Positions 10,035 to 41,792 of a stretch of DNA of 48,026 nucleotides are shown here, piece by piece; position 1 is the stretch's first letter, and every line of letters starts with the position of its first letter. The position numbers were made by a program, and so were the translations under genes. Source of the stretch: an uncultured Gammaproteobacteria bacterium (GTDB lineage: Bacteria; Patescibacteriota; Microgenomatia; UBA12405); assembly GCA_964432085.1 (NCBI GenBank), contig CAYSME010000001.1, positions 1-48,026 of the forward strand, in the 5' to 3' direction. The notes beneath the pieces are model-generated. The model was not told where the DNA came from. It made no database searches and worked only from the letters and a program-made list of their open reading frames with translations.

Positions 10035-10038
10035 GACT

Positions 10039-10087: not shown

Positions 10088-10110
10088 TTAAATCTGATAA
10101 AATTTACAAT

Positions 10111-10704: not shown

Positions 10705-10705
10705 T

Positions 10706-12194: not shown

Positions 12195-13591
12195 AGATAA
12201 ATATTTTTCGACCAATAATTGCCATTTTAATTTTATTTATTCCTTTATATCCCAAATTTCCTTTAACTAACGTTGATGGCACTTATGTTGCCATTCGTCT
12301 TGACGACATCGTCATCGCCCTAACTATTTTAATTTGGTGTATTTATCAAATTATTCACAAATTTCCCGTTTTTAAATTAAAAATAACAAAATTATTTTTA
12401 GCCTATTTTATAGCCATAATTGCCAGTTTTGTCACTGCTTTTTTAGTCTATCAAATCGACTCCACTAATCTATTAATCCTTCATCTTGCCCGACGTTTTG
12501 AATATATTTCCCTATTTTTCATTGCTCTTCAGAGTTTCAAAACAAAACAAGATTTAAAATTTAGTTACATTTTTCTTTTAATTTCTACCTTTTTTATTAG
12601 TGTCTACGGTTATGGTCAAAAATATTTCCATCTCCCAGTCATTTCCACTATGAATGAAGAATTTTCCAAAGGTCAACTTCTTCAAATGAGCACTTGGACC
12701 CGTATCAGCGCCACTTTCGCCGGACACTACGATTTAGCCGCTTTTCTAAGTGTAGTTTTAATAATCATCGCTGTTGTTTTTATTTTGAATAAAAATAAAT
12801 GGATTAAAATATCAAGTTTTATAGTTTGGATAGTTACTTATCCGATTCTTACTTTTACTGCATCCAGAGTTTCTATTTTTGCTTTTTTGGGTGGAATTGT
12901 ATTCACTCTTGTTGCTCTAAAAAAATATTTTTGGACTATACCTTTTGTTATTATCGTAATTTTCAGTATGTTCAATTCTGATGATTTAAGTCAAAGACTC
13001 CTAGCCACCATTCCTGCCTTCAAGCAACAAATATCCAAAACTACCAATCCATCAATAACTCCCACTGCCACTCCAACTCCAACAACTGCACCAATTGCCA
13101 TAATATCTCAAAGTCCTATTTCTCAAAAATTAACCCCCACTCCCACAATTATCCGCCACACCTCTACTGAGGTTTATCCCACTGTCGATGTTGACGCTGG
13201 TGTTGCTCGTTCCGGAGAAATTCGTTTTAATGTTGAATGGCCCAGAGCTATCAGAGCTTTTAAGAAAAACCCCCTAACCGGAACCGGACTCGGCTCCATT
13301 ACTCTTGCCACCGATAATGATTATCTCCGTGCTTTAGGTGAAAGTGGTATTTTAGGTTTCATAACTTTTACTATAATTCAATTATTTTTTATAATAAAAA
13401 CTGTTCCTTTTATTTTTAAGAAAAAACAAACATCTCAACAACAAATTTCTATCTTATTTTTAGGCTGTCTTTTAACCACCTTAGCCAACGCTATTTTTAT
13501 AGACGTTTTTGAAGCCTCAAAAACTGCTTATCTTTTTTGGATAATGATGGCTTTCTATTATCAATTGCTAAATTTAAAAAATGAAAAATAA
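12179..13591 (+). CDS. O-antigen ligase / Wzy-like polytopic membrane protein
   Basis: More than 10 TM helices, a central loop after FTASRVSIFAFLGG, and a GTGLGS motif near the C-terminal helices. Contains a Thr/Pro-rich linker (TPTATPTPTTAP ... TPTPT). Confidence 0.6.
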   Translation: MFKNIKINIFRPIIAILILFIPLYPKFPLTNVDGTYVAIRLDDIVIALTILIWCIYQIIHKFPVFKLKITKLFLAYFIAIIASFVTAFLVYQIDSTNLLILHLARRFEYISLFFIALQSFKTKQDLKFSYIFLLISTFFISVYGYGQKYFHLPVISTMNEEFSKGQLLQMSTWTRISATFAGHYDLAAFLSVVLIIIAVVFILNKNKWIKISSFIVWIVTYPILTFTASRVSIFAFLGGIVFTLVALKKYFWTIPFVIIVIFSMFNSDDLSQRLLATIPAFKQQISKTTNPSITPTATPTPTTAPIAIISQSPISQKLTPTPTIIRHTSTEVYPTVDVDAGVARSGEIRFNVEWPRAIRAFKKNPLTGTGLGSITLATDNDYLRALGESGILGFITFTIIQLFFIIKTVPFIFKKKQTSQQQISILFLGCLLTTLANAIFIDVFEASKTAYLFWIMMAFYYQLLNLKNEK

Positions 13592-14792
13592 AAGAAAGAT
13601 TTTAATGATTACTCCTTATCTCCCTCGTCGGGCTCAATCTGGAGGTCAAAATAGTTCTTATTATTCAATAAAATATTTAGCCGATGAAAACGATATCACT
13701 TTAATTTGTTTTAGTCGTGACCAAGAAGGCCTAGAAGAAATCAAACCTTTTTGTAAAAAAGTTATAGTGGTTAAACGTGGTAAAACCTGGGATTTTAAAA
13801 AAATTCTTTACACTGGTTTTAGCACCTATCCATTCCTTGTTACTAACTATATCAGTAAAGATCTTAATCAAACTATTAGTCAAGAATTAAATAATGATAA
13901 ATACGATTTAATCCATTGTGAATGTTTCTATTTAATGCCTAACATTCCAAAAACTAAAATACCTATTGTTCTTGTTGATCAAACCATAGAATTTGCAGTC
14001 TATGAACATTATATAAAAACAGTTAAAGGTATAAGAAAGATTTTGTATCCATTTTTATGGTTCGACGTTTTAAAACTTAAACACTGGGAAACATATTATT
14101 GGAAAAATACCCATACTGTTGTTGCCTTTGGAGAAGAAGATCAAAAAATAATTGCCAAAATTACCGGTAGAAACGACATAAAACTTTTTGATAATGGCGT
14201 TGATAATAAATATTTTGAGTCAAAACCAAAAACATCAAAAAGTGAAACCCCTTCAATCCTTTTTGGTGTTTCTAATATGAAATGGATGCAAAACCGAGAA
14301 TCTGTTGAAATGATCATAAAAGATTCTTGGCCGGAAATTAAAAAGGCAATTCCCGATTGTAAACTCTATATCATCGGACGATTAGCGCCAGATTACTATG
14401 GACATTACCGTTCAAAAGATGTCATAGTAGAGGAAGCTGATTTTGATGGAAAACCCCACGACCCCATGTATTACTACCAATATTGTTGGATCTTGGTTGC
14501 CCCAATGGGCAGTGGTGGAGGTAGTCGCAATAAATTTTTGGAAGCTATGGCTTGTCGTCTTCCTATTATCACCACACCAGAAGGTATGGGTGGAATTAAA
14601 ATTGAAAACTACAAACAATCAATCGTTTGTAAATATGAAGATGTTGCCAAAAACACCATTGATCTTCTGAAAGATAATAAAAAAAGAATCACTATGGGTA
14701 ACGAAGCTAATAAGCTTATTAGTGGTAGATATTCCTATCAAAATAGTGTTAAAGGTCTAAATCAAATTTATAAAGAAATTAACAAAAAATAA
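13581..14792 (+). CDS. glycosyltransferase family 4-like (GT-B)
   Basis: ILMITPYLPRRAQSGGQNS at the N-terminus and GSGGGSRNKFLEAMACRLPIITTPEGMGGI at the C-terminus. Confidence 0.75.
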   Translation: MKNKRKILMITPYLPRRAQSGGQNSSYYSIKYLADENDITLICFSRDQEGLEEIKPFCKKVIVVKRGKTWDFKKILYTGFSTYPFLVTNYISKDLNQTISQELNNDKYDLIHCECFYLMPNIPKTKIPIVLVDQTIEFAVYEHYIKTVKGIRKILYPFLWFDVLKLKHWETYYWKNTHTVVAFGEEDQKIIAKITGRNDIKLFDNGVDNKYFESKPKTSKSETPSILFGVSNMKWMQNRESVEMIIKDSWPEIKKAIPDCKLYIIGRLAPDYYGHYRSKDVIVEEADFDGKPHDPMYYYQYCWILVAPMGSGGGSRNKFLEAMACRLPIITTPEGMGGIKIENYKQSIVCKYEDVAKNTIDLLKDNKKRITMGNEANKLISGRYSYQNSVKGLNQIYKEINKK

Positions 14793-14793
14793 A

Positions 14794-15705
14794 ATGGATT
14801 TATCAGTCATAATTTTAAATTATAATTCTCGTGATTATCTTAAAAAATGTCTAGAAAGCATTTCTAAATCCAATATTGGTAACTATAAATATGAAATTAT
14901 TATTGTCGATAATAATTCTTCCGATGACAGTATTGAGTCAGCAAAAACAGTCAAATCTTCAAATTTTCATTTTTTAGAACTAAAAGATAATAGGGGATTT
15001 GCTCACGGCAATAATCAAGGATTACTAAAAATAGACCCTAAAACCAGATTTGTTCTTTTTTTAAACCCCGACACTATTGTTGAAAAAGACACTTTCAAAA
15101 AAATGATCGAATTTTTTGATCAAAATAAAGATGTCGATGCCGCCACTTGCCAAATTAATTTAGCCCTCACTGGTAAAATGCAGCCAGAATGCCATCGTGG
15201 ATTCCCCACTCCTTGGAATTCCTTTTGTTATTTTTCCGGCCTATCCAAACTATTTCCTAAATCAAAAACTTTTTCTGGTTATTTTATGGGCAATTTAGAT
15301 TTAAAAACCCCTCATAAAATCGATGCTTGTGTTGGAGCTTTTCTAATGGTTAAAAAAGAAGTTGGAGACAAAGTTAATTGGTGGAACGAAAAATACTTTT
15401 TTTATGGTGAAGATCTTGATTTTTGTTATCAAATCAAGAAAAACAATTTCAATTTATATTTTAATCCAAATTGCAAAATTACCCATTTTCAAGGAGTTTC
15501 TTCCGGATTAATTTCCAAAACTAAAAAAATTTCCAAAGCCTCCCGCGAAACCAAAATCAAAGTTGCCAAAGCCAGCACTAATGCTATGAGAATTTTTTAC
15601 CAAGAAAATTTATTTTCTCAATATTCAATCATCACTAAACTTTTAGTTATGTTTGGTATTAAAATACTAGAGCTTCAAAGAATCTTCAAAGCCAAATATT
15701 TATAA
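14794..15705 (+). CDS. glycosyltransferase family 2
   Basis: LSVIILNYNSRDYLKKCLESI, IIIVDNNSSDDS, FLNPDT and FYGEDLDFCYQ. Confidence 0.85.
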   Translation: MDLSVIILNYNSRDYLKKCLESISKSNIGNYKYEIIIVDNNSSDDSIESAKTVKSSNFHFLELKDNRGFAHGNNQGLLKIDPKTRFVLFLNPDTIVEKDTFKKMIEFFDQNKDVDAATCQINLALTGKMQPECHRGFPTPWNSFCYFSGLSKLFPKSKTFSGYFMGNLDLKTPHKIDACVGAFLMVKKEVGDKVNWWNEKYFFYGEDLDFCYQIKKNNFNLYFNPNCKITHFQGVSSGLISKTKKISKASRETKIKVAKASTNAMRIFYQENLFSQYSIITKLLVMFGIKILELQRIFKAKYL

Positions 15706-15747
15706 TCTAATATCTTCTAATATGTTCTAATATGTTCTAGAATATTC
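15704..15747 (+). promoter_or_regulatory. four tandem ~10-bp repeats (TTCTAATAT-like) immediately upstream of fic; contains -10-like hexamers
   Basis: aatCTAATAT-cTTCTAATAT-gTTCTAATAT-gTTCTAGAATAT, with one-helical-turn periodicity. TAGAAT lies 6 nt before the ATG at 15750. Confidence 0.5.
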
Positions 15748-15749
15748 TT

Positions 15750-16646
15750 ATGAACGATTATAATGATCATATTATTCAAATCGAAGCCCTAAAACTTTAT
15801 TTTGAAAAACTCGACACTCATCAAACTATCAAAAAAAATATTCTCCGTAATTCTTTGTTAAAGAGTGCTAGATTTTCAAGCAAAATAGAAGGTACTGACT
15901 CAAAATTAGAGATAAATAATCTTTATAAAGCCTACGTATATGTTACTTCTAAAAAATCACCTCAAAAATTATCTTTAAATTTATTTAAAGAACTTCATAA
16001 AATTGTTTTAAAAAATATTTCTTCAGATTGTGGTAATTTTAGAACTGATCCTTGTGCCATTTATAATACTGCCGGTGTTGCTATTTATTTAGCTCCTCCA
16101 GCCCAAAAAGTCATTAAATTACTTGATGATCTAATAGAAGAAATAAACAATAGTAAAGATCATTGTTTAATTAAAGCTGCTATTTTTCAATTTAAATTTG
16201 AAAAAATTCATCCATTTTTAGATGGTAATGGCCGTATTGGTCGACTTATTTCTTATTTAATTTTATATAAAAATGGTTTTTCCTTTAACGGTTATTTATC
16301 ACCAGAAGAATACATAAACAAATACCGTGAAATTTATTATGATTGTTTAGACTCAGATAAAAATTATCAACCCTTTATTAAATTCTTTTTAGAATCCATT
16401 TTAAATCAAATCAAAATAAGTTTTAATGATTTTAAAAATCCAAGTAACCTCAATCATCTTTTACCTCGCCGCCGTGAAATTTTTGAAATAATAAAAGATC
16501 ATCCTAATTGTTCTTTTGATTTTATCAGTCGTCGTTTTACTAAAATTAACCCTAAAACACTTCACTATGACTTATCTCAATTACAAAAAGAAAAATTAAT
16601 TATGAAAGCTGGTATTTCTCGTGGTGTTACTTATGTTATAAAATAA
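15750..16646 (+). CDS. Fic family protein (class II, N-terminal inhibitory helix) with C-terminal winged-HTH-like domain
   Basis: Canonical Fic motif HPFLDGNGRIGR. N-terminal (S/T)xxxE(G/N) inhibitory motif SSKIEG at aa 43-48. The C-terminal REIFEIIKDHPN ... LSQLQKEKLI resembles a wHTH. Confidence 0.9.
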   Translation: MNDYNDHIIQIEALKLYFEKLDTHQTIKKNILRNSLLKSARFSSKIEGTDSKLEINNLYKAYVYVTSKKSPQKLSLNLFKELHKIVLKNISSDCGNFRTDPCAIYNTAGVAIYLAPPAQKVIKLLDDLIEEINNSKDHCLIKAAIFQFKFEKIHPFLDGNGRIGRLISYLILYKNGFSFNGYLSPEEYINKYREIYYDCLDSDKNYQPFIKFFLESILNQIKISFNDFKNPSNLNHLLPRRREIFEIIKDHPNCSFDFISRRFTKINPKTLHYDLSQLQKEKLIMKAGISRGVTYVIK

Positions 16647-16651
16647 AAACT

Positions 16652-17773
16652 ATGAAGTACAAAACAAAACACATCGTTATTGATGCTCGCCTTTACGGAC
16701 CAAAACACACCGGTATTGGTCGCTATACCAAAAATCTTCTTAAGGCTTTAATTAAATCTCCTGATTTCAAAAAATATAAATTTACTTTAATTATTTACAA
16801 AAATCTTGAAGAAGAAATTAAAAAAGATTTAGGAAACAATTTTAATTACTTTACTACCAATATTAAGCACTATTCCCTAAGTGAACAGCTTTTTTTACCT
16901 TTTATAATTTATAGTCTAAAACCAGATTTAGTCCATTTCACTCATTTCAATAAACCAATCCTTTATTTTCCCAAATCTGTCATAACTATTCACGACTTAA
17001 TTAAACATTTTTTTAAAGGGAAAAATACCACCACGCGAAGTCAATTTTTATATAAAATAAAATATTTTGGTTATTTAATTTTAATCCGCACCATTGTCAC
17101 CAGAAATCAAATAATTGTCCCCAGTAATTTTTGGCGTGATTTTTTAATTCAAAAATATCATCTTAAAAATTCTCAAGTTGTCACCACCCACGAAGCTGTC
17201 GATCCTATTTTTCTAGCTAAAATTAATGATGAGGCCATCGAAAAAAAACCAGAAAATTATTTAATCTACACCGGAAATTTATACCCACACAAAAATATAA
17301 TTGTCCTTTTAAGAGCCTTAAAACATTTACCAGATGTCAATCTAAAAATTATCTGTGCTCGCAGTTTTTTTAGCGAAAAATTAACTAAACAAATTAAACA
17401 TTTCAAACTAAAAAAACAAGTCGAACTTCTTGGTTACCTTGATGATAAACAGTTTAAAGAAGTCTATAAAAATGCTCTAGCTCTGGTTCATCCATCTTTA
17501 ATGGAGGGTTTTAGTCTAACCGGTCTTGAAGCCATGGCTCTAAATTGTCCAGTAATTTCATCAAATTCCAGTTGTCTTCCTGAAATTTATGGCGATTCAG
17601 TTTTATATTTTGATCCTTATAATCCTGAAGATTTAATTGAAAAAATTAACCAATTAAAAGATAATCCAGACCTGCGTCAAAAATTAATTAATCTTGGACA
17701 TCAACAACTTAAGAAATACTCTTGGGACAAAACTGCCAAATTAACCATGGCAGTTTATAAAAAATTTTTATGA
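16652..17773 (+). CDS. glycosyltransferase family 4
   Basis: PSLMEGFSLTGLEAMALNCPVISSNSSCLPEIYGDSVLYFDP. Confidence 0.85.
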   Translation: MKYKTKHIVIDARLYGPKHTGIGRYTKNLLKALIKSPDFKKYKFTLIIYKNLEEEIKKDLGNNFNYFTTNIKHYSLSEQLFLPFIIYSLKPDLVHFTHFNKPILYFPKSVITIHDLIKHFFKGKNTTTRSQFLYKIKYFGYLILIRTIVTRNQIIVPSNFWRDFLIQKYHLKNSQVVTTHEAVDPIFLAKINDEAIEKKPENYLIYTGNLYPHKNIIVLLRALKHLPDVNLKIICARSFFSEKLTKQIKHFKLKKQVELLGYLDDKQFKEVYKNALALVHPSLMEGFSLTGLEAMALNCPVISSNSSCLPEIYGDSVLYFDPYNPEDLIEKINQLKDNPDLRQKLINLGHQQLKKYSWDKTAKLTMAVYKKFL

Positions 17774-18852
17774 TTCAGCCAAAAATTGCCTTGTTTTACG
17801 ATTGGTTAAACCAATGGGGCGGCGCTGAAAAAGTTCTACTCGACTTAATCAAACTTTATCCCAACGCACCAATCTACACTTTGGTTTACGACCCTAAAAA
17901 AACTAAATGGCTTCCCAACAATACTAAAATTATAACTTCATTCATAAATAAAATTCCCTTTTTCAAAAAAAATTCTATTTTTCAAACTCCATTTTATCCT
18001 CTAGCCGTAAAACAATTTGATTTTTCCAAATATGATATTGTCATTTCCACCACTCAAATTATCGGTCACGGTTTAAATGTTCCCCAAAAAACAAAATTTA
18101 TATGCTATTTTCACAACATTAATCGTTATGTCTATCAAACCCCATCCCAGTTTAAAATTTTAAAGCCACTCTTAAATCTGTACCAAAAATTAGATTTTAT
18201 TTATGGCCAAAAACCAGACTATTTATTTTGCAACTCTAAAACAGTTCAAAAAAGAATTATTAACGCTTATCACCGGCCTTCTAAGATAATCCATCCGGGT
18301 ATTGATACCTCCTTTTTTATTCCCACAAAAACCAAACCTAAAGAAAAATATTTTTTAATTGTTTCTCGACTTGTTTCTCATAAAAAAATCGACATTGCCA
18401 TCAAAGCTTGCCATAAGTTAAATCAAAAATTATATATCGTCGGCACCGGCCGAGACAAAAATAAATTAACTAATCTGGTTAATTCTCTTAATAACTCAAA
18501 TATAAAATTTTTTGACCAAGTTGATGATAATAAATTATTAAATCTCTACCAAAACTGCCAAGCTTTAATTTGTCCCCAATTGGAAGATTTTGGCTTAACT
18601 CCAATTGAGGCTCAAGCTTGTGGTAAACCGGTTATTGCCTATAATAGGGGAGGTTTAACCGAAACTGTTATTAATGGTAAGACCGGCATCTTTTTTAAAA
18701 AACAAACAGTAAAAAGTTTAATCTCTGCTATTAAGAAATTTAATCCAAACAATTTTTCAAAAAACATCTGCCAAAAGAATGCTCAAAAATTTTCAAATAT
18801 TAATTTTATGTTAAACTTTAAAAAAGAAATAGATCTCTTATGTCATCAATAA
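17770..18852 (+). CDS. glycosyltransferase family 4
   Basis: PQLEDFGLTPIEAQACGKPVIAYNRGGLTETVINGKTGIFF. ATGA overlap with the upstream gene. Confidence 0.85.
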   Translation: MIQPKIALFYDWLNQWGGAEKVLLDLIKLYPNAPIYTLVYDPKKTKWLPNNTKIITSFINKIPFFKKNSIFQTPFYPLAVKQFDFSKYDIVISTTQIIGHGLNVPQKTKFICYFHNINRYVYQTPSQFKILKPLLNLYQKLDFIYGQKPDYLFCNSKTVQKRIINAYHRPSKIIHPGIDTSFFIPTKTKPKEKYFLIVSRLVSHKKIDIAIKACHKLNQKLYIVGTGRDKNKLTNLVNSLNNSNIKFFDQVDDNKLLNLYQNCQALICPQLEDFGLTPIEAQACGKPVIAYNRGGLTETVINGKTGIFFKKQTVKSLISAIKKFNPNNFSKNICQKNAQKFSNINFMLNFKKEIDLLCHQ

Positions 18853-19925
18853 ATCATTATATTTTCATTCTTTGCGGCGGAACAGGACCTCGTCTTTGGC
18901 CCTTATCCAGAAGAAGTAATCCCAAACAATTTCTTTCACTTTTCGATAAAAAATCAATTTTAGAACAAACCATCCAAAGATCTCAACGAATCACTGACAC
19001 TAAAAATATTTACATTGTTTCCAATGAAATTTATAAAGACAAAATCATTAAAATTGCTCAAGACTTTAAATTAACTAAAAACATAATTATCGAACCAGAG
19101 AAAAAAAATACTGCCATGGCTATTCTTTATGCCACCATTAAAATTAAACAAATTGATCCCAACGCCATTATCAGTACTTTTCCTTCAGACCATTACATTA
19201 AAAACATTGTTCAATTAAAACAAACTCTCAATAAAGCCACCACCGTGGCTAATTTAACTGACTCTATTGTTACCATAGGAATAAAACCAACTAATCCACA
19301 AACTTCATTTGGTTATATCCAACCAGACAAAAAAACCGACGATTATTATACCGTTCACAAGTTTATTGAAAAACCTAATTCTAAAAAAGCTCAAAAACTA
19401 ATCGATAATAATGCTTTTTGGAACTCTGGTATCTATACCTTCTCTATTTCAACCTTAATTTCTGAATTTGAAAAATTGCAACCAGAATATTTCAAAATAG
19501 CCATAGATTTAGAAAAAAATTTAGATTATCCCAAAAAAATAATTCAAACTTATAAAAATGCTCCAAATCTATCCATTGATAGAGCCATCTCCGAAAAAAC
19601 ATCTAATATGGCCATGATTCCTGCTACTTTTGACTGGAGCGATATTGGAGAGTGGAAATCAATCTACTACAACTTATCTAAAAAAAATGATGATATTGTT
19701 TCTTTAAATAAAGCAGAATATGTTCAAGTGAATTCTAAAAAGTGTCTGATTCACACTTCCAAAAATAAGTTAATCGGTTTAGTTGGTGTTAATAATTTAG
19801 CCATAATCGATACTCCCGACTGTTTACTCATCTGTAACATAGCCCACAACGACAGTTATCATGTTAAAGATATCGTCTCTCAAATTGTCAAAAAAGAAAA
19901 ATTAAAAAAATATTTCTTAGATTAA
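18840..19925 (+). CDS. sugar-1-phosphate nucleotidyltransferase (mannose-1-phosphate guanylyltransferase-like, no cupin/PMI domain)
   Basis: N-terminal ILCGGTGPRLWPLSRRSNPKQFL, then FPSDHYI, and DWSDIGEW near the C-terminus. Confidence 0.75.
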   Translation: MSSINHYIFILCGGTGPRLWPLSRRSNPKQFLSLFDKKSILEQTIQRSQRITDTKNIYIVSNEIYKDKIIKIAQDFKLTKNIIIEPEKKNTAMAILYATIKIKQIDPNAIISTFPSDHYIKNIVQLKQTLNKATTVANLTDSIVTIGIKPTNPQTSFGYIQPDKKTDDYYTVHKFIEKPNSKKAQKLIDNNAFWNSGIYTFSISTLISEFEKLQPEYFKIAIDLEKNLDYPKKIIQTYKNAPNLSIDRAISEKTSNMAMIPATFDWSDIGEWKSIYYNLSKKNDDIVSLNKAEYVQVNSKKCLIHTSKNKLIGLVGVNNLAIIDTPDCLLICNIAHNDSYHVKDIVSQIVKKEKLKKYFLD

Positions 19926-19926
19926 A

Positions 19927-20565
19927 ATGAAAAAAAAATTATTTGCTATTTTTAAAAGAGCTATAGATATTATTGGGTCATTATTTCTTCTAATTCTATT
20001 TTCTCCCATCATATTAATTACCATGGTTCTAATCAAAATAACTTCACCCGGCCCTATTTTTTTTAAACAAAAAAGAGTTGGTAAAAATAGTTGCCAATTT
20101 TGGATGTATAAATTTCGTTCTATGTACACTGGCGATAATGATAAACGTTTAAAAGAAAATTATCCAGAACTTTGGAAAAAATATAAAAATGATGGCTGGA
20201 AATTGCCCATGAATGAAGATCCTCGTATTACTCCGATCGGTAAGAAAATTAGATCATTAACCATCGATGAGTTCCCACAACTTATAAATGTTTTAAAAGG
20301 AGATATGAGCTTGGTTGGCCCCAGAGCCTATCGAGAAGAAGAGCTTCAAGAACAAGAAGAAAAATATCCTAAAACTAAAAAATACATCAAAATTATTCGA
20401 TCAGCTAAACCTGGAATCACTGGTGTTTGGCAAACTTCAGGACGAAATGATATCTCATTTGAACAACGTGCCAAAATGGATGCTGAATATATTCAAAAAC
20501 AATCTTTCTTTGAAGAGATTTTAATCTTGCTTAAAACTCCAGCCTCCATGTTGTCTCGCTGGTAA
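19927..20565 (+). CDS. small (PglC/WbaP-C-like) undecaprenyl-phosphate sugar phosphotransferase
   Basis: KRAIDIIGSLFLLILFSPI, KFRSM, DEFPQLINVLKGDMSLVGPRA and PGITGVWQTSGRN. Confidence 0.85.
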   Translation: MKKKLFAIFKRAIDIIGSLFLLILFSPIILITMVLIKITSPGPIFFKQKRVGKNSCQFWMYKFRSMYTGDNDKRLKENYPELWKKYKNDGWKLPMNEDPRITPIGKKIRSLTIDEFPQLINVLKGDMSLVGPRAYREEELQEQEEKYPKTKKYIKIIRSAKPGITGVWQTSGRNDISFEQRAKMDAEYIQKQSFFEEILILLKTPASMLSRW

Positions 20566-27974: not shown

Positions 27975-29276
27975 ATGGTTCAAAAAATAAAAAACGTCCT
28001 ATTTCACCTACCAAAAAGTTATTTTTACAATTTCAGATACGGTTTTCCCACCAGAAAATTAACTCTTATTGGTATTACTGGAACAGACGGTAAAACCACC
28101 ACTTGTACCCTAATTAACGAAATATTAAAACAATCCGGATTAAAAACTGGGTTAATCACTACCATTGGTGCCAAAATTGGCGACAAAGAAATCGATACAG
28201 GATTTCATACCACCTCTCCTGATCCAGCTCTTCTTCAAAAAGTTTTTACCGATATGGTCAAAGAGGGTATAACCCATGTTGTTTGCGAGGCCACTTCACA
28301 TGCCTTAGACCAATACCGTTTTGGCGGCTGTAAGTTTGAAATTTCTGGTATTACCAACACTTCCCACGAACATTTAGATTACCATAAAACAATGGAATCA
28401 TACATCAAAACTAAACTAAGATTATTTTTAATGTCTAAAAATGCTGTTTTAAATAAAGACGATCAATCATTTGAAACCATCAAAAAACAAATTAAAATTC
28501 CTTTTAAAACTTTTAGTATTCAAAAAACTTCAGACTATCAGGCCCAAAAAATTAAACTGGAAGCAGACACTTTAAGTTTTCATGTTAACGGTCAAAAATT
28601 CATCACCGATAGTAGTTATGAATACCAGGTTTATAACATTTTGTTAGCTACCGCCATTTGTTATAAATTAGGGGTTAAATCTGAAACAATTCAGCAAGTG
28701 ATCAAACATTTTCCAGAGGCCAAAGGTCGAAGAGAAGAATTACAAAATGATCTTAAATTTAAAACTATTATTGATTTTGCCCACACTCCAAATGCCTTAG
28801 AAGCATCTCTTTCGTCACTCAAGAAAAATAATAAAGGAAATCTTATTACTATTTTTGGTGCCACTGGTGGTCGTGATCAAACCAAAAGGCCAATGATGGG
28901 AGAAGTTGTTTCCAAATTTTCCAACATCGCACTAATTACTGCTGACGATACCAGAAATGAAAAAGTTGAATTCATTAATAAACAAATTATCAGTGGAATT
29001 GATTCCAAAAAATCAGAATTAATTGATTATCAAGAAATTAAAACTAAAAAACAAATATTAACAGTACTTGAAACTGCCAAGAAAAAATTTGTTTACTTTA
29101 ATATCCCTAACCGTCAAGACGCTTTTAATTTGGCCATAAAGTTGGCTCAACCAAACGATGTTGTTATTGCTTGTGGTAAAGGTCATGAAACCACTATTCT
29201 TCATGGTAAAACCGAATATCCCTGGTCCGAAGCTGAAGCTTTCAGAACTGCTTTCAGATTACGAAAAATAAAATAA
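27975..29276 (+). CDS. murE: Mur ligase, MurE-like (UDP-MurNAc-L-Ala-D-Glu: diamino acid ligase), short N-terminus
   Basis: GITGTDGKTTT, HTTSPDP, EATSHALDQYR and NTSHEHLDYH. DDTR stands at the position of the DNPR specificity motif. Confidence 0.8.
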   Translation: MVQKIKNVLFHLPKSYFYNFRYGFPTRKLTLIGITGTDGKTTTCTLINEILKQSGLKTGLITTIGAKIGDKEIDTGFHTTSPDPALLQKVFTDMVKEGITHVVCEATSHALDQYRFGGCKFEISGITNTSHEHLDYHKTMESYIKTKLRLFLMSKNAVLNKDDQSFETIKKQIKIPFKTFSIQKTSDYQAQKIKLEADTLSFHVNGQKFITDSSYEYQVYNILLATAICYKLGVKSETIQQVIKHFPEAKGRREELQNDLKFKTIIDFAHTPNALEASLSSLKKNNKGNLITIFGATGGRDQTKRPMMGEVVSKFSNIALITADDTRNEKVEFINKQIISGIDSKKSELIDYQEIKTKKQILTVLETAKKKFVYFNIPNRQDAFNLAIKLAQPNDVVIACGKGHETTILHGKTEYPWSEAEAFRTAFRLRKIK

Positions 29277-29277: not shown

Positions 29278-29868
29278 ATGCCCCAATTTAATTTGAAAAA
29301 TACCAATAGTATCGATGAAAATTATAAAAACGGTTTACTCCCTCAAAGAAATAATAAAGATTTATTTTATTTTCAAACAAGCAGTAGATCAGATCTGACT
29401 AATTTCAATTTAAGTTCCGAAAATCGCCGAATTTTAAAAAAAACTCAAGATTTTACTTTTGAAAAAATACTTCTAAAAGATTTTAGTTACGATTTTAAAG
29501 TCCAAAAAGAAATATCAAACTGGGTAAAAGAACTTGGATGGGATTTCCCCGTAAGTTCAATAAAGAATATTTTCAAAAATCATATTTTTAATTATCTATA
29601 TATATGGAAAAATCAATCAAATAATATAGTTGCCTATTCCATTTGTTATTTTTCAAAAGATATTAGTCATATTGCCTATGTTTTTTATAACCCAAAATTA
29701 ACTCATGGAAATTTACCTATTCGTCTAGTTCTTCAAGTTATTATTGACAGCCATGAATTAAATCTTAAATATTGTTATCTTGGTCGTTTTTCCCAAGATT
29801 CAGGTTTTTACAAACGCAACATGCCCGGTTTTGAATATTTCAAAGAAAATAATTGGGTTAATTTTTAA
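29278..29868 (+). CDS. ATE_C/Bpt-like putative aminoacyl-tRNA-dependent transferase (GNAT/Fem fold), C-terminal domain only
   Basis: SSENRRILKKTQ, AYVFYNP ... G and YCYLGRFSQDSGFYKRNMPGFEYF ... NW parallel the bacterial Bpt/ATE_C blocks SxxQKRxL, FYTFFDP and YLGYxI...MxYKxxFxxxE. The Cys-rich ATE_N domain is absent. Confidence 0.5.
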   Translation: MPQFNLKNTNSIDENYKNGLLPQRNNKDLFYFQTSSRSDLTNFNLSSENRRILKKTQDFTFEKILLKDFSYDFKVQKEISNWVKELGWDFPVSSIKNIFKNHIFNYLYIWKNQSNNIVAYSICYFSKDISHIAYVFYNPKLTHGNLPIRLVLQVIIDSHELNLKYCYLGRFSQDSGFYKRNMPGFEYFKENNWVNF

Positions 29869-31283: not shown

Positions 31284-32612
31284 ATGTCTCGATATATCAT
31301 TGATGGCGGTAAGGCACTTAAAGGTGAAGTTTCAATTAGGGGAGCTAAAAATGCCAGCTTTAAACAAATAATTGCTTCCTTATTAACCGACCAAACTGTT
31401 ACCTTAAATAATGTTCCCCAAATTTCCGATGTAAAAATAACCCAAAGTATAGCCAAAAGTCTTGGATGTCAAATAATTCAATCTGGTGAACATTGCCTCC
31501 AGTTAATCACCAAAAAAATTACCAATTCTGTTGTTCCTGTTGGCACTGGCGAAAAATCTCGAACTTCTTTTATGTTCGCTGGTCCACTGCTTGCCCGAAC
31601 TGGCACTGCTATAGTTCCAATTCCAGGTGGAGATAAATTAGGTGATCGGCCTCTTGATCGTCTTTTTGATTGCTTTTCCAAAATGAATATTAAAGTTTCT
31701 AAAACTGATCACGATATTACCTTTAATACCGATAAAATTATAGGTACTCATTATACTTTTACCAAACCATCTCATACTGTCACTGAAGTCATTATTATGA
31801 CTGCAGTTTTAGCTCAAGGCGAAACCATTATTGACAATGCCGCTCTTGAACCAGAAATTGACGATTTAATCATGATGCTCAACCAAATGGGTTCCCAAAT
31901 AAAAAGAGATCCTGACAATAATAAAAGAATAATTATCCAAGGTGTTTCTAAATTGAATGGAACTATGCATGATGTCATTTGCGACCGTAATGAAATAGTC
32001 ACTTTTGCTTGCGCTGCCTTAGCCACCAAAGGTTCCGTTTCGATTTTAAGAGTCAATCCAAATATTGTTAAAAAATTTATCGATACTATCATTCAGATGG
32101 GAGCCAATGTTCGAATTGGTAATGATGAAATTTATATTGAATGGATTAAACCTTTATCTAGTATTAATATTGAAACCGGTCCAGAACCCGAATTTATGAC
32201 CGATTGGCAAGCTATTTTTTCTGTTCTATTAACCCAAACTGTCGGTTGCAACTCTATCAGCGAAAGAGTTTACCCTAACCGTTTTCAACATATTGAAAAC
32301 CTTAAAAAAATGGGTGCTAAAGTTAATTTTTTCAATCCAGAAATAGACGATCCCGACAATTATTACCAATTCAACAAAGAAAGTGACGATCCAAAATATT
32401 TTCATGGTGTTAAAATTTACGGACCAACCAAATTAAAACCGGCTGATTTTATTATTAGTGATCTTCGTGCTGGGGCCTCTGCCACTGTTGCCGCTCTAAC
32501 CGCCTCAGGTAAATCAACCATTGAAGGCGTCGAATATATAGAAAGGGGATATGAAAAACTGGCTGAACGTCTTTGGTCTTTAGGTGCTAACATAGAATAT
32601 ATAAAAAAATAA
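31284..32612 (+). CDS. murA: UDP-N-acetylglucosamine 1-carboxyvinyltransferase
   Basis: IRGAKNA and an active-site loop PIPGGDKLGDRPLD, with Asp where E. coli has Cys115. The C-terminal LRAGASATVAAL also fits. Confidence 0.92.
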   Translation: MSRYIIDGGKALKGEVSIRGAKNASFKQIIASLLTDQTVTLNNVPQISDVKITQSIAKSLGCQIIQSGEHCLQLITKKITNSVVPVGTGEKSRTSFMFAGPLLARTGTAIVPIPGGDKLGDRPLDRLFDCFSKMNIKVSKTDHDITFNTDKIIGTHYTFTKPSHTVTEVIIMTAVLAQGETIIDNAALEPEIDDLIMMLNQMGSQIKRDPDNNKRIIIQGVSKLNGTMHDVICDRNEIVTFACAALATKGSVSILRVNPNIVKKFIDTIIQMGANVRIGNDEIYIEWIKPLSSINIETGPEPEFMTDWQAIFSVLLTQTVGCNSISERVYPNRFQHIENLKKMGAKVNFFNPEIDDPDNYYQFNKESDDPKYFHGVKIYGPTKLKPADFIISDLRAGASATVAALTASGKSTIEGVEYIERGYEKLAERLWSLGANIEYIKK

Positions 32613-32616: not shown

Positions 32617-33651
32617 ATGATGCATTTATACCTAGGCCTCTTGCTCTTCTCTTTCTTAATTACCAGCATATTAGTCGTCCCTTTTATCAACCTTCTTTAC
32701 AGACTAAAATTTCAGCGACGAGTTCAAAAAACCACCGATTTTCAAAATAAAAGAGCTGCTATTTTTGATAAATTTCACAATCAAAAATCAGGCACACCAG
32801 TTGGTGGTGGCTTATTGATCATAACTTCAATTTGTATAATGTTCACCTTTTTATTCCCCATCCTTAAATTTTCTCGAATTTTCATTTCATCAAACTATGC
32901 CATTAATGCCGAAATTATTATTATCTTTTTTACTTTTATTAGTTTTGGACTGCTTGGACTTTATGATGATGTTATGAAATTTTTTGGTTTCAAAAAAACC
33001 GGATTTTTCGGATTAAAAATGTCTTATAAATTTATTTTGCAAATAATAATTTCTTTGATAATTTCATTAATGATTTATCTTCAGCTAAGAATTGATTTTA
33101 TCTACATTCCGTTTTTAGGAGCAGTTAAATTAGGTTGGTTTTTTATTCCTATTTCTGTCATTTTTATCACCGGTTTTGCTAATTTTTTCAACATCACCGA
33201 TGGTTTAGATGGCCTATCTTGTGGACTTTTAACAATTGCTCTTTTTGCTTTCTGGATTTTAGCCAGTACCTCGTTGGATACCATTCTTTCTTCATTCATT
33301 GCTCTTTGGATTGGCGCTTTAATTGCTTTTCTTTATTTTAACGTTTATCCTGCCAGAATCTGGCTCGGAGACGTTGGATCTTTATCATTTGGAGCTACCA
33401 TCGCCGTTATCGCTTTACTTTTAGGTAAAGTGGTTCCATTGGTTATTGTTGGATTTCCTTTCATAGTCGAGGGTATGTCCAGTGCTATTCAATTGCTTAG
33501 TAAAAAATATTTTAAAAAGAAACTTTTTCCAGCTGCTCCAATCCATTTAACTTTGCAAAATATCGGTTGGGAAGAGCCCAAAATTGTCTTTAGGGCTTGG
33601 TTAGCCGGGATTATATTAGCAATATTTGGACTATGGTTAGGACTAAATTAG
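32617..33651 (+). CDS. mraY: phospho-N-acetylmuramoyl-pentapeptide transferase
   Basis: GTPVGGG, NITDGLDGLS, GDVGSLSFGA and PIHLTLQ; polytopic. Confidence 0.92.
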   Translation: MMHLYLGLLLFSFLITSILVVPFINLLYRLKFQRRVQKTTDFQNKRAAIFDKFHNQKSGTPVGGGLLIITSICIMFTFLFPILKFSRIFISSNYAINAEIIIIFFTFISFGLLGLYDDVMKFFGFKKTGFFGLKMSYKFILQIIISLIISLMIYLQLRIDFIYIPFLGAVKLGWFFIPISVIFITGFANFFNITDGLDGLSCGLLTIALFAFWILASTSLDTILSSFIALWIGALIAFLYFNVYPARIWLGDVGSLSFGATIAVIALLLGKVVPLVIVGFPFIVEGMSSAIQLLSKKYFKKKLFPAAPIHLTLQNIGWEEPKIVFRAWLAGIILAIFGLWLGLN

Positions 33652-34175
33652 AACTACAACAAGAAATAGAAAAATATATCGGTCTGCCTTATAGCAAGAA
33701 TATTATTAAAGACGGAAAAATTACCAAAGAACAAGTTTTGGGAGGTAAAGGTAATTGTCTTCAACTCGCCACTGAAACTATTAGATTAGCTCAAAAACAA
33801 AATATTGATTTAACTAAATTAAATAATCAGAAATTCTACAATTTTCAAAAAAGAAATCATATTGGCATTGATTGTTCAGGTTTGGTTTCCAATTTACTAA
33901 ACTTTTATTTCGGAACAGATTTAAATCCAAGAAAAACCTCTGCTGATATGTTGACCTCATCTCCGCTTTCTAAAGAAATAAAACCAAGTGAAATTAAAAC
34001 TGGTGATTTGATTCGTCAAAAAAACGGCAACCATATTTTATTTATCATTGAAAAACAAGGCGATAAAATCATTTACGTCGACAGTTCTCGTGAAGGCAGG
34101 GGAGTAAAGTTTGGAAAAGTCGACATTACCGATAAAAATTTTCAACACCAAGGATTTTTTCGATTAACAATCTAA
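33633..34175 (+). CDS. NlpC/P60 (C40)-like cysteine peptidase without signal peptide
   Basis: IGIDCSGLVSNLL (catalytic Cys context) and GDLI ... NGNHILFII (His context). The start was set to ATG 33633, which overlaps the mraY end by 19 nt. There is no N-terminal hydrophobic segment. Confidence 0.5.
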   Translation: MVRTKLELQQEIEKYIGLPYSKNIIKDGKITKEQVLGGKGNCLQLATETIRLAQKQNIDLTKLNNQKFYNFQKRNHIGIDCSGLVSNLLNFYFGTDLNPRKTSADMLTSSPLSKEIKPSEIKTGDLIRQKNGNHILFIIEKQGDKIIYVDSSREGRGVKFGKVDITDKNFQHQGFFRLTI

Positions 34176-34225: not shown

Positions 34226-34384
34226 TTACTTTTCTTCAATTAATTCTCGGTATTTCAATGGATTTAAAGATAAAATTTCCACTTCAGTCCCACATTCACC
34301 ACATTCAATAATATCTCCCACCATTGTATTCTCGGTTATTTCAATTTCTTTTTGACAATCCGGACAGATAATTTTTTCGTTCAT
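34226..34384 (-). CDS. LysW-like zinc-ribbon small protein (52 aa), not in the ORF track
   Basis: MNEKIICPDCQKEIEITENTMVGDIIECGECGTEVEILSLNPLKYRELIEEK. The CPxC-x17-CxxC layout and the GD(I)IxCxxCGxEVEI ... L.P.L pattern match LysW/ArgW carrier proteins, but the C-terminal EDWGE tail is absent. Confidence 0.55.
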   Translation of the reverse strand: MNEKIICPDCQKEIEITENTMVGDIIECGECGTEVEILSLNPLKYRELIEEK

Positions 34385-34423: not shown

Positions 34424-35245
34424 ATGTCAAACACACCTTTAATCAAATTAGAAAATGTCTATTTCAAACGGGAAGATTTAAATGAAACTGGCTCAGCCAA
34501 AGACCGGGCTATGATTTTTCAAATTGAAAACCTAAAAAAACAAGGTTTTAAATCGGCCGTGATCTCCAGTACTGGTAATGCTGCTATCTCTGCTGCTCAT
34601 TTTTGCCATATCAACAAAATTGATTTAACTATTTTTGTTTCCCCAAAAATCAATAAAAATAAATTTGACTTACTTAAGCAAGGAGGCGGTCAAATTTTTA
34701 TTTCTAATCAGCCAATTAGTGAATCAATTAAGTTTGCTAAAAAAAATCATGCTTATCTTCTTCGTCAATCCACCGACCCCAGCGCTTTGATTGGATACCA
34801 AGAAATTGGCAAGGAATTAATGGATCAATTACCTCAAATTACCAGTGTTTTTATCCCTGTTGGCAGCGGCACAACTCTTTTGGGTATTTCTAAAAGTTTA
34901 AAACCATCAGTTAAAATCTATGCCGTCCAACCGGCTAACAATTGTCCATTATCTAAAATTTTTGACTCAAATTATCAGCCAGAAACAGAGATTATCACAG
35001 ATGCTCTCTCGGCTAAATATCTTCCTTTAAAATCTCAAATCATTACCGCTATCAAAAATAGTAACGGTTCCGGACTAGTCGTTCAAAATAATGAAATCAT
35101 GGATGCCCAAATAAAATTGTCTTCAGATCAAATAAAAACTTCTTTTGAAGGTGCTATGGCCTTCGCCGGCCTTAAAAAAGCAATTAAAAACAACCTGGAA
35201 ATAGGCGATTATCCAGTTATAGTTTTAACCGGATGTCAAAGATAA
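34424..35245 (+). CDS. fold-type II PLP-dependent enzyme, threonine-synthase-like (short, 273 aa)
   Basis: TPLIKLENVYFKREDLNETGSAKDRA (PLP-lysine context as in TGSFKDRG), SSTGNAAISAAHFC, STDPSALIGYQEIGKEL and IPVGSGTTLLG. Confidence 0.7.
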   Translation: MSNTPLIKLENVYFKREDLNETGSAKDRAMIFQIENLKKQGFKSAVISSTGNAAISAAHFCHINKIDLTIFVSPKINKNKFDLLKQGGGQIFISNQPISESIKFAKKNHAYLLRQSTDPSALIGYQEIGKELMDQLPQITSVFIPVGSGTTLLGISKSLKPSVKIYAVQPANNCPLSKIFDSNYQPETEIITDALSAKYLPLKSQIITAIKNSNGSGLVVQNNEIMDAQIKLSSDQIKTSFEGAMAFAGLKKAIKNNLEIGDYPVIVLTGCQR

Positions 35246-36345
35246 ATTTAGAATCTATCATTAATCAATCACCTTATATTTTCTTTTTTTTAGTGGTTGA
35301 TAAATTTTTAGATATAGAAATTCCCCAATTAAAAAATTTCGAAAAAATTTATCTTTCTGATTATCCTTCAATAAAAGAAAAAAATAGTGGTAAATTACTT
35401 GCCAATAAAAAAGTTATTGATTATATTTTAAAAAAATCCCAAAAAACTAATCTAATTCCAGCAATTATTCCCTTTAAACCATCAGCTAAAATTGATTTTA
35501 TTTGCAAAAAATATAATTGGATAAATATCAGTAACCCCGGACCAATCAATCGTTTTCTGGAAGATAAAATCAAATTTGCCAAACTTTGCCAAAAATATAA
35601 ATTACCAACCATTCCTTTTTCAATTGATTCTTTTTCGCAAAAAAATTTTTTAAAATACCAAAAAATTTATAGCCAAAAGCTAGTTATTCAAACTCATTTT
35701 GGTTGGGCTGGTAATAGTACATTTTCAGCCGAATCTTGGGATGAAATTAAAAATAAAATTTCTCCAGATATAATCGTCAAATATAGTCCTTTTATTCAAT
35801 CTTCCTATTCTCTATTAAACAATTGCTGTTTCACTAAATTTGGATTAATTCAAAGTCCTCCAGCACTCCAATACACCGGAATTACTCCCTACACCAAAAA
35901 TCTTTTTACTACTGTGGGTCGTCAATGGCCATCAATGGCTTCTCAAAAAATAATCAACAGGATAAAAAAAATAACCAATAATTTTGGAAAAATTTTAAAA
36001 AATGTTAACTATAAAGGTTTTTTTGGTTTAGATTTTTTAATTACCAATAATGAAATTTTTTTATTGGAATGTAATCCTCGCCTAACTGCTTCTTTCAGTT
36101 TTTATACCAAAATAGAACAAAATCAAAACATTACTCCTCTTTTTTATTTTCACCTCGCAGAATTTTTAAAGCTAAATTATCAAATTAATCTCAAAAAAGA
36201 ACAATCAAGATTTGATAATAAAAAAATTATCGGTTCCGAAATAACTCCTAAAAATAAATTTAATCACACTTATAAAAAATTAAATTTTGATTATCCTCTA
36301 TCAAAAACCACCAATCCAATTTCTATTTCTCCAAAAATTAAATGA
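35233..36345 (+). CDS. ATP-grasp family ligase, substrate unknown
   Basis: EDKIKFAKLCQKYKLPTIP, VIQTHFGWAGNSTF and YKGFFGLDFLITNNEIFLLECNPRLTASFSF (CPSase-like E-x-NPR block). Confidence 0.65.
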   Translation: MSKINLESIINQSPYIFFFLVVDKFLDIEIPQLKNFEKIYLSDYPSIKEKNSGKLLANKKVIDYILKKSQKTNLIPAIIPFKPSAKIDFICKKYNWINISNPGPINRFLEDKIKFAKLCQKYKLPTIPFSIDSFSQKNFLKYQKIYSQKLVIQTHFGWAGNSTFSAESWDEIKNKISPDIIVKYSPFIQSSYSLLNNCCFTKFGLIQSPPALQYTGITPYTKNLFTTVGRQWPSMASQKIINRIKKITNNFGKILKNVNYKGFFGLDFLITNNEIFLLECNPRLTASFSFYTKIEQNQNITPLFYFHLAEFLKLNYQINLKKEQSRFDNKKIIGSEITPKNKFNHTYKKLNFDYPLSKTTNPISISPKIK

Positions 36346-41288: not shown

Positions 41289-41540
41289 CTAATAATAAAC
41301 TTCTCTTCGATGAGCTACTTTTAGTATATAAATCTTATTTCCTTTTATTTCAAAAATGACTCGATAATCTCCAATTCGATATCTATATTCACCTAATTTA
41401 AAATTAACCAATCTTTTCGATATTTTTAATGGATCATTTCTCAGTAAAATCATTTTTTTACCAATTCTTTTTTTAACCACACTGTCTAATTTACCAATTT
41501 CTGATACCGCTTTTTTTGTAATTAAAATCTCATATTCCAC
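41289..41540 (-). CDS. RelE/ParE-family type II toxin
   Basis: 83 aa with KLGEYRYRIGDYRVIFEI ... IYILKVAHRREVY, typical of RelE/ParE. There is a 3-nt gap to the upstream antitoxin gene. Confidence 0.8.
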   Translation of the reverse strand: MEYEILITKKAVSEIGKLDSVVKKRIGKKMILLRNDPLKISKRLVNFKLGEYRYRIGDYRVIFEIKGNKIYILKVAHRREVYY

Positions 41541-41543
41541 TAT

Positions 41544-41792
41544 CTATATTTTGCCAAAAATTTCTTCAAAAGGATACACCTCACCATTTTTAATATTTTT
41601 TCGGGCCTCTTCTATATCTTTTTTATATTCAGGATTAGCCAAAGCTAATAAATCTTCCAACATATCAATATTTATAATTGCTGATTTAATTTTTCCTCGA
41701 CTAGAAATCAAAACAAAATTTTTCTTGTTCTCGACCAAATCTAATGTATCAGCTAAATTGTTTCTTAAAATTGTACTTGTTACTGTGTTCAT
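41544..41792 (-). CDS. Phd/YefM-family type II antitoxin
   Basis: 82 aa with an N-terminal TILRNNLADTLDLVENKKNFVLISSRGK pattern. It is directly upstream of the toxin. Confidence 0.75.
   Translation of the reverse strand: MNTVTSTILRNNLADTLDLVENKKNFVLISSRGKIKSAIINIDMLEDLLALANPEYKKDIEEARKNIKNGEVYPFEEIFGKI

Follow-up and report, generated by a model that had tools for sequence, protein, structure and literature searches.

A stretch of 48,026 nucleotides (contig CAYSME010000001.1 of assembly GCA_964432085.1, hereafter the window) carries a division and cell wall (dcw) cluster that includes a 196-aa open reading frame (ORF) with an ATG start, the product of which is given here the short name ATEC. 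The cluster opens with rsmH (25182), ftsL and ftsI, continues with murE, the ATEC gene, a Mur-family ligase gene, murA, mraY and a gene encoding an NlpC/P60-like protein and, after a zinc-ribbon gene on the opposite strand, is completed by the PALP and ATP-grasp genes, ftsW, murG, a 126-aa ORF, ftsA and ftsZ (Table 1). No gene for a MurC-type ligase, MurD, MurF, MurB or Ddl was found within the 48-kb window. An earlier reading of the same sequence (hereafter the original prediction) described ATEC as an ATE_C/Bpt-like homolog of arginyl/leucyl-tRNA-protein transferases placed between murE and a MurC/Mpl-type ligase, and proposed its recruitment as a Fem-like enzyme that adds branches to peptidoglycan precursors. 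The spacing that it reported is exact, the murE stop (29276) being followed by a 1-nt gap and the ligase start (29907) preceded by a 38-nt gap, and its motifs SSENRRILKK, AYVFYNP and YCYLGRFSQDSGFYKRNMPGFEYF..NW are all found in the ATEC translation.

Table 1. Genes at and around the ATEC locus, with positions in the window.
Feature	Position	Strand	Remarks
ATEC, ATE_C/Bpt-like aminoacyl-tRNA transferase homolog, 196 aa	29278..29868	+	helix SSENRRILKK 46-55, YLG 167-169, Tyr178-Lys179
MurE-type ligase, 433 aa, central and C-terminal domains only	27975..29276	+	without N-terminal UDP-binding domain
Mpl-type UDP-MurNAc:peptide ligase homolog, 457 aa	29907..31280	+	sole Mur-family ligase in the cluster with PF01225
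murA (EPSP_synthase family), in the same co-directional cluster	31284..32612	+	
mraY (Glycos_transf_4)	32617..33651	+	directly upstream of ATEC in Saccharibacteria-type loci
NlpC/P60-like protein, DCSG motif, without obvious signal peptide	33597..34175	+	co-conserved with ATEC; putative pathway member
LysW-like protein of 52 aa with a zinc ribbon and a conserved acidic tail (..ELIEEK, terminal Lys)	34226..34384	-	putative pathway member
PALP, pyridoxal phosphate-dependent fold-type II, nearest to threonine synthase and Ser/Thr dehydratase	34424..35245	+	co-conserved
ATP-grasp ligase (ATP-grasp_3; PRK06524 match weak), not canonical Ddl	35233..36345	+	co-conserved

The window is AT-rich and the closest ATEC homologs are named by NCBI as Candidatus Shapirobacteria (Patescibacteria). 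Records of metagenome-assembled genomes titled "uncultured Gammaproteobacteria bacterium" (L008, L012, L013 and many of the GTDB loci) carry syntenic Shapirobacteria-type dcw clusters, and because these clusters are 60-85% identical to the window, and 60-80% identical to and fully syntenic with the Shapirobacteria ones, such titles were taken as placeholder taxonomy. A search with the single ATEC sequence returned 565 proteins of 65-80% identity, and the alignment of 55 close homologs contains 64 invariant columns; the gene is under strong constraint. A profile search retrieved 2244 protein clusters at E ≤ 1e-5, a representative library gave 232 clusters at E ≤ 1e-3, and a scan of one genome per GTDB species, queried with the close-family alignment, yielded at least 528 stretches encoding an ATEC relative. 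The organism names on the matches all belong to Patescibacteria (Shapirobacteria, Woesebacteria, Microgenomates, Dojkabacteria, Nomurabacteria and Magasanikbacteria), to which the family, judging by these matches, is specific. In databases the relatives are labelled either as hypothetical or, by homology, as arginyl-/leucyl-tRNA-protein transferases.

PF04377 (ATE_C) matches residues 98-174 of ATEC with 23.6 bits (E 8.5e-5), below its gathering score of 25, a threshold that several relatives pass (e.g., P0133 with 32.9 bits and P0154 with 40.6 bits). Among 109 representatives, which stand for 50%-identity clusters, ATE_C is matched by 93 (E ≤ 0.01) and no other Pfam family recurs. ATEC reaches 18-34 bits with seven NCBIfam arginyltransferase models, the cut-offs of which are 170-358, and neither PF02388 (FemAB) nor PF03588 (Leu_Phe_trans) matches ATEC at E ≤ 1. 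A sequence search of the PDB with the close-family profile gave no ATE or Fem match, and ATE1 was reached, weakly, only with a broader profile. An AlphaFold (AF2) model, built with the alignment of the 55 close homologs, reached a predicted local distance difference test (pLDDT) score of 91.7 and a predicted TM-score (pTM) of 0.89. Compared with the PDB by Foldseek, this model matched first the ATE1 proteins of human, yeast and K. lactis (E 4e-9 to 1e-6, query TM-score (TMq) 0.70-0.75), second the aminoacyl-phosphatidylglycerol synthase domains of MprF (TMq about 0.50-0.56) and third Weissella FemX (TMq about 0.51-0.53). All three groups are aminoacyl-tRNA transferases of GNAT-derived fold. 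ATEC is a distant ATE/Bpt relative whose fold is settled by the predicted structure; the ATE_C/Bpt-like identity advanced by the original prediction, which had suggested these profile and structure comparisons, is borne out, with a weak likeness in sequence and a predicted fold nearest to ATE1.

At the residue level, this broader profile, built from 27 diverse members of the family, matches residues 239-307 of yeast Ate1 weakly (E 0.075) and in register with the fold. In this alignment, the YLG motif of Ate1 is matched by Y167-L168-G169 of ATEC, and Ate1 Y303-K304 by Y178-K179. In K. lactis Ate1 (klAte1), the K304A and Y303F variants are inactive, and K304 matches the catalytic K305 of FemX, in which F304-K305 is equivalent to Tyr303-Lys304 of Ate1 (PMC9351520). 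The pair of an aromatic residue and the catalytic Lys that follows it, a trait of both ATE/Bpt and FemX, is thus present in ATEC as Y178-K179. Both residues are conserved in at least 90% of the 109 representatives, as are G19, R37, S47, E48, N49, R51, position 147, Y167, G169 and W193. The SSENRRILKK segment forms a helix (47-55) in the ATEC model. A basic helix that binds tRNA phosphates has been described for Ate1 and FemX (PMC9351520), and by analogy the SSENRRILKK helix may be the tRNA-binding helix of ATEC.

The residues of the donor pocket point away from Arg. When mapped by us through the weak alignment, the Arg-pocket residues S255, S273, E277 and Y289 of Ate1 fall on I132, L150, V154 and C166 of ATEC, and the position of the acidic, Arg-binding Glu277 of klAte1, V154 in ATEC, is occupied by Ala or Val in relatives. 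Bpt has A, A, Q and L at these pocket positions, which are neutral as in ATEC. Because the pocket is neutral, as in Bpt, rather than acidic, Arg is an unlikely donor. From its residues ATEC looks active, and it probably uses a neutral amino acid rather than Arg.

The metal site in the ATE_N domain of klAte1 consists of four Cys (C23, C26, C95 and C96). PF04376 (ATE_N) matches none of the 109 representatives, the first Cys of ATEC is C123 and the family alignment shows no conserved Cys. The statement in the original prediction that ATEC lacks the Cys-rich ATE_N domain holds for the Cys motif and not for the N-terminal half of the protein, as the N-terminal 95 residues still align to ATE1/Bpt. 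Since the NF002346 alignment (ATEC 35-193 to profile positions 80-242 of 247) and the Foldseek alignment, which covers nearly the whole chain, both reach into this half, it is the metal-binding motif that was lost and not the half itself. With a sub-threshold ATE_C match, no ATE_N Cys, no Arg-binding residue, no FemAB match and a single domain, ATEC is a regular member of neither ATE/Bpt nor FemABX.

The genes around ATEC were compared by searching the window proteins against all ORFs of fetched loci, which extend up to 10 kb on each side of the ATEC gene. Out of 79 GTDB loci fetched, 77 had enough downstream sequence to be judged, and in all 77 the gene that follows ATEC is a homolog of the window ligase, once in a fused form. 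The pairing also occurs in metagenome loci at 25-37% identity, and the lineages that show it extend from Shapirobacteria to Dojkabacteria, Nomurabacteria-type and Saccharibacteria, with identities of 25-80%. Variations are a 195-aa methyltransferase gene between ATEC and the ligase (L096) and a locus with a Mur-family ligase upstream of ATEC on a contig that ends just past ATEC (L091). In a groundwater lineage (P0122), ATEC, a Pro/Ser-rich linker and the ligase form a single protein of 645 aa. The fusion ORF is present in four independent assemblies (L005-L007 and L065), and an assembly artefact is ruled out because the same ORF with its linker recurs in these assemblies, made by different assemblers. 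A pairing that holds in every informative locus, together with the fusion, shows that the link of ATEC to peptidoglycan genes is not due to chance.

The same data bear on the conventional alternative, in which ATEC would be an N-degron leucyl/arginyl-tRNA-protein transferase and its location within the dcw cluster would be functionally irrelevant. The names given by JGI, "arginyl-tRNA--protein-N-Asp/Glu arginylyltransferase" and "leucyl-tRNA--protein transferase", agree with this reading, as do the weak NCBIfam matches. However, these matches do not exceed 34 bits against equivalog cut-offs of at least 170, the ATE_N Cys motif is missing from the 109 representatives, the synteny persists across phylum-level divergence, a fusion to a Mur-family ligase exists, and the annotated ORFs of the window include neither ClpS nor ClpA, which together make a conventional Bpt extremely improbable.

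A second and distinct fusion partner of the ATEC family was observed at one locus (L090, 10001..12430), where an 809-aa protein (P0182) joins an ATEC-family domain to PPDK_N (ATP-binding) and phosphoenolpyruvate (PEP)-utilizer swivel domains, with no Mur ligase beside it. This fusion, as well as the second place of the MprF synthase domains among the structural matches, would fit another role altogether, such as the aminoacylation of a hydroxyl, as by MprF, or of an amino sugar, the deacylation of tRNA, or a structural function as a ligase subunit. Such roles have a small chance of being correct, as the invariant Tyr-Lys pair and the basic helix favour a true aminoacyl-tRNA transferase and the neighbourhood holds no pointer to a lipid or sugar-hydroxyl acceptor.

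The relation of ATEC to murE is less constant. The murE gene lies directly upstream of ATEC, often overlapping it by a few bases, in Microgenomates-type loci and also in the Dojkabacteria loci L078 and L080; it is located 4.6 kb upstream in L076, and in Saccharibacteria-type loci the gene upstream of ATEC is mraY. Synteny with murE across relatives, which the original prediction had named as a check, is retained in part of the relatives and lost in the others. Because murE adjacency varies while the ligase pairing and the fusion hold, the most constant partner of ATEC is the ligase and not MurE.

This distinction matters for the Fem-like branch, in which ATEC would aminoacylate the side chain of the diamino acid at position 3 of the UDP-MurNAc-tri/pentapeptide (UDP-MurNAc, uridine diphosphate N-acetylmuramic acid) or of lipid II, and thereby start a cross-bridge. 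ATEC shares with FemX a fold superfamily and the catalytic Lys, a 1-nt gap or overlaps in Microgenomates and Dojkabacteria couple its translation to that of murE, and the side chain at position 3 carries the first free amine on the UDP-linked precursor. Furthermore, Weissella FemX acts on a soluble UDP precursor (PMC2655667). Against this, adjacency to murE is lost in Saccharibacteria-type loci and adjacency to the Mpl-type ligase never is, and three further lines of evidence, presented below, make a branch-adding role unlikely, with an appreciable residual chance.

The first of these lines is the ligase itself. Mpl attaches a preformed peptide to UDP-MurNAc. The best PDB match of the window ligase is 3hn7, a Psychrobacter Mpl (PaMpl), with MurC structures close behind. 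The window ligase was aligned with MurC and Mpl of E. coli MG1655, and all 85 ligases of the loci were then aligned. Two features are specific to Mpl (PMC3060825), namely a loop, (S/T)AFFDKRSK, that MurC-F lack, and a Gly-rich loop containing a bulky residue. The Mpl loop is found in 85/85 ligases, in which it is 18-20 residues long (versus 12 in MurC and 19 in Mpl of E. coli) with the consensus E.DE..SI.GLD..AKF. The Gly-rich loop reads GIAGTM in these ligases, versus GICGTF in Mpl and GIGGAG in MurC, and they further have YPPxST (YPPMST in Mpl), DDFA (DDFAHHP in Mpl and DDYGHHP in MurC) and MSSGG (MSNGG in Mpl). The PHRFTR of E. coli MurC, which we mapped onto the L-Ala-binding residues H376, R377 and R380 of HiMurC, is replaced by PHASFI in the window ligase. 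By these signatures the partner ligase is Mpl-type and not a proven Mpl, the whole-profile scores given below disagreeing with the motifs.

The second line concerns the other Mur ligases of the cluster. The window MurE aligns only from its residue 22, which corresponds to residue 101 of E. coli MurE, and in MurE Pfam detects only Mur_ligase_M and Mur_ligase_C. In all 80 loci, the central domain of MurE is preceded by 66 residues or fewer (median 31) when the ORF is taken from stop to stop. Likewise, a MurF homolog of 401 aa (L095, 15464..16669) begins at about residue 92-116 of the solved MurF structures. PF01225 is kept, among the Mur ligases of the cluster, by the Mpl-type ligase only. That ATEC is a stand-in for the missing N-domain of MurE is ruled out by its ATE/GNAT fold, the conserved dyad and the ligase being the constant partner. 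Neither the Mpl signatures of the partner ligase nor the loss of the UDP-binding domain from MurE and MurF would be explained by a Fem-like branch. In addition, DNPR of E. coli MurE corresponds to DDTR in the window MurE, which retains the Arg linked to specificity for diaminopimelic acid (DAP). As cross-bridges on DAP are uncommon, the retention of this Arg also speaks against branch addition.

The third line comes from the gene content of the clusters. One locus (L095) has the order mraZ, rsmH, ftsL, ftsI, murE, ATEC, ligase, murB, murA, ddl, murF and mraY, such that within the locus all cytoplasmic steps are present except a MurC-type ligase and MurD. Three other loci (L084, L094 and L096) contain PALP, ATP-grasp, NlpC/P60-like, mraY, one or two FemAB genes, a DegT aminotransferase and a MurF-like ligase, and continue with murE, ATEC, the ligase, murB and murA; neither murC nor murD is found in these three clusters. 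A MurC-type ligase was not detected in any of about 90 loci. The FemAB genes of the three loci are genuine separate genes (E 1e-34), so that the branch-adding function is already provided there, contrary to what a Fem-like ATEC would require. The coexistence of ATEC with FemAB in these loci suggests that ATEC performs a different step from FemABX. These clusters also hold two MraY-family (Glycos_transf_4) genes each (L084 14115..15143, L094 16613..17641 and L096 17946..18974), and the genes between mraY and murE encode a DegT aminotransferase, an alpha/beta hydrolase and the FemAB protein(s).

Taken together, these observations are best explained if the patescibacterial ATEC is catalytically competent and acts in cytoplasmic precursor synthesis rather than in an N-degron pathway. 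The recruitment of the family to peptidoglycan synthesis is well supported, and ATEC is likely an aminoacyl-tRNA transferase of this pathway. As regards the reaction, an aminoacyl-tRNA carries an activated carboxyl, hence the acceptor must be a nucleophile. ATE1 and Bpt recognise, on proteins, an amine next to the carboxylate of an acidic residue. From its tRNA, an L-amino acid that is small and neutral, L-Ala being the most plausible, would be passed by ATEC to the alpha-amine of either D-Glu or a peptide containing gamma-D-Glu. The product would be a peptide with a complete N-terminus, which the Mpl-type ligase would join to UDP-MurNAc. MurE and MurF without UDP-binding domain would extend a free peptide and not a UDP-linked one, and the acceptor peptide could be made by these truncated enzymes or salvaged from a host. 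ATEC would thereby form the bond for which MurD is normally responsible, and the Mpl-type ligase would take the place of MurC, the three amide bonds being formed by three enzymes. This transfer of tRNA-borne L-Ala onto D-Glu or a gamma-D-Glu peptide is a tentative proposal, plausible without being probable. Stem-building is favoured over a Fem-like branch because of the Mpl-type partner, the domain loss in MurE and MurF, the clusters without murC and murD, and the separate FemAB genes. Hence, the ATE/Bpt-type fold, the Tyr-Lys pair and the peptidoglycan link on which the original prediction built its Fem-like recruitment hold, while the branch role appears less likely than stem-building.

Several points weigh against a stem-building ATEC. 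As a whole, the ligase scores better with the murC model TIGR01082 (244.9 bits, cut-off 335.1) than with the mpl model TIGR01081 (185.6 bits, cut-off 388.7); the original designation as MurC/Mpl-type ligase is thus sharpened by the Mpl signatures, while the whole-profile scores lie nearer to MurC and are both below cut-off. To our knowledge, the extension of free peptides has not been described for any Mur ligase. The absence of murC and murD covers 8-10 kb around the ATEC gene, and because murB, murF and ddl of the window lineage also lie outside the cluster, a gene missing from the cluster is not necessarily absent from the genome. In Saccharibacteria-type loci, with the order ATP-grasp, NlpC/P60-like, mraY, ATEC, ligase, LysW-like (-), PALP and murD (-), a MurD of full length, including the N-domain, is encoded a few genes from ATEC. 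It implies a UDP-MurNAc-L-Ala intermediate in these organisms, so that a bypass of MurD is not universal unless the pathway differs by lineage; a replacement of MurD by ATEC in all carriers is ruled out by this true MurD. No tRNA gene or Rfam family was detected in the window, and hence no sign of a dedicated tRNA. Finally, the assignments of donor and acceptor are based on the weak alignment (E 0.075) and on analogy. While the fold, the Tyr-Lys dyad, the loss of the Cys motif, the synteny, the fusion, the Mpl signatures and the domain losses are shown, we infer which donor and acceptor are used, in what order the steps occur, and that murC and murD are lacking genome-wide.

Further genes accompany ATEC. 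An NlpC/P60-like protein (apparently cytoplasmic), PALP and an ATP-grasp ligase that is not Ddl-like travel with ATEC, the ligase and mraY in orders that are rearranged across Patescibacteria, and they may supply or process an unusual amino acid of the wall. A LysW-like protein, with a CPDC..CGEC zinc ribbon and a tail reading ..YRELIEEK (..VDEGK in Saccharibacteria), is encoded in 58 fetched loci, including L080 of Dojkabacteria and L082, L083 and L086 of Saccharibacteria. Its gene always adjoins that of PALP and its terminal Lys is conserved. Canonical LysW carriers end in Glu, and since the tail ends here in Lys, the protein has the appearance of a distinct carrier type. It was hence considered whether ATEC aminoacylates the LysW-like protein, the tail of which ends in ..EEK or ..DEGK, or else an intermediate that this protein carries, within a route of the amino-group-carrier type that includes ATP-grasp, PALP and the NlpC/P60-like protein and makes or delivers an unusual amino acid or peptide of the wall. 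The activity of ATE/Bpt enzymes on proteins, at amines beside acidic residues, is compatible with this possibility, as are the 58 LysW-like genes beside PALP with their retained Lys and the co-occurrence of the other three genes with ATEC in rearranged orders. However, ATEC never adjoins the LysW-like gene except through the ligase, and L095 combines ATEC and a complete Mur set with no PALP or ATP-grasp_3 module within 10 kb of ATEC; a carrier-protein enzyme is accordingly improbable, and so is the amino-group-carrier-type route around it. In an extended form of the stem-building proposal, the whole stem peptide would be assembled off the nucleotide sugar, maybe on the LysW-like carrier (..EEK), and the Mpl-type ligase would attach the finished peptide in one step. 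In such an assembly line, ATEC would supply the tRNA-activated residue, truncated MurE and MurF with the ATP-grasp ligase would add the other residues, PALP would make an unusual diamino acid, and the NlpC/P60-like enzyme would release the product. This extension is highly doubtful.

Elsewhere in the window, an envelope-glycan block (3979..20565) contains ten glycosyltransferases, a Wzy-like polymerase, a hexapeptide acyltransferase and a nucleotidyl transferase, as well as an isolated MprF-type LPG_synthase_TM protein without synthase domain and a Fic-domain protein (15750..16646). Between ftsZ and a gene for a class I tRNA synthetase, two overlapping-operon ORFs of 83 and 82 aa (41289..41792, -) look, when judged by eye from their sequences, like a RelE/ParE-type toxin and a Phd/YefM-type antitoxin.

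Comparison with known systems indicates where ATEC departs from each of them. ATE1 and Bpt are the closest, as they give the best structural match, their catalytic Tyr303-Lys304 is met by the YLG...YK of ATEC, and the donor pocket is neutral as in Bpt. In contrast, ATEC has about 200 aa instead of about 240 (Bpt) or about 500 (ATE1), lacks the Cys4 metal motif and the Arg-binding Glu, stays below the family thresholds, and is restricted to Patescibacteria, in which its gene belongs to the dcw/mur cluster and, in one case, is joined to that of an Mpl-type ligase. With FemX, FemABX and MurM, ATEC shares the GNAT-derived fold class, the aromatic residue before the catalytic Lys, the presumed use of aminoacyl-tRNA in wall synthesis and the linkage to mur genes, but its 196 aa make up a single domain, compared with two GNAT domains in those enzymes (335 aa for Weissella FemX), it does not match PF02388, and the structural match is weaker (TMq about 0.5). 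The L/F-transferase Aat and the MprF synthase domain belong to the same fold group of aminoacyl-tRNA transferases, whereas ATEC has neither a PF03588 match nor a membrane domain, and a lipid acceptor is unlikely. As for Mpl, the partner ligase has the specific loop, GIxGT followed by a bulky residue, YPPxST, DDFA and MSSGG. E. coli Mpl is a salvage enzyme encoded outside the dcw cluster that works alongside MurC and MurD, while the ligase described here lies inside the dcw cluster and is paired with a tRNA-dependent transferase.

The original prediction was aware of no description of a Fem-like role on peptidoglycan precursors for the ATE_C family, and no description of the ATEC family or of such a role turned up in full-text literature searches; a paper on Saccharibacteria genetics and a TM7x transcriptome paper do not mention the ATEC gene. 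The Mur pathway, in which MurC, MurD, MurE and MurF act on UDP-MurNAc, is held to be near-universal in walled bacteria and is a paradigm of drug targets. An additional enzyme of an N-degron family is conserved inside the wall operon in a large part of Patescibacteria, a radiation that accounts for a major share of bacterial diversity. On a conservative reading, the present analysis provides a role for about 2200 protein clusters that are now hypothetical or mislabelled as arginyltransferases. Beyond this, ATEC may mark a tRNA-dependent, peptide-first version of the Mur pathway. If the stem is indeed built from aminoacyl-tRNA, this would be the first tRNA-dependent step in the main chain of peptidoglycan and a second, non-proteolytic function of the ATE/Bpt family, and it would tie wall synthesis directly to the substrate pool of translation in organisms that rely on hosts for amino acids. 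Were the whole peptide assembled off the nucleotide sugar, as in the extended proposal, this would constitute a third route to a wall peptide, beside the classical Mur and the pseudomurein pathways.

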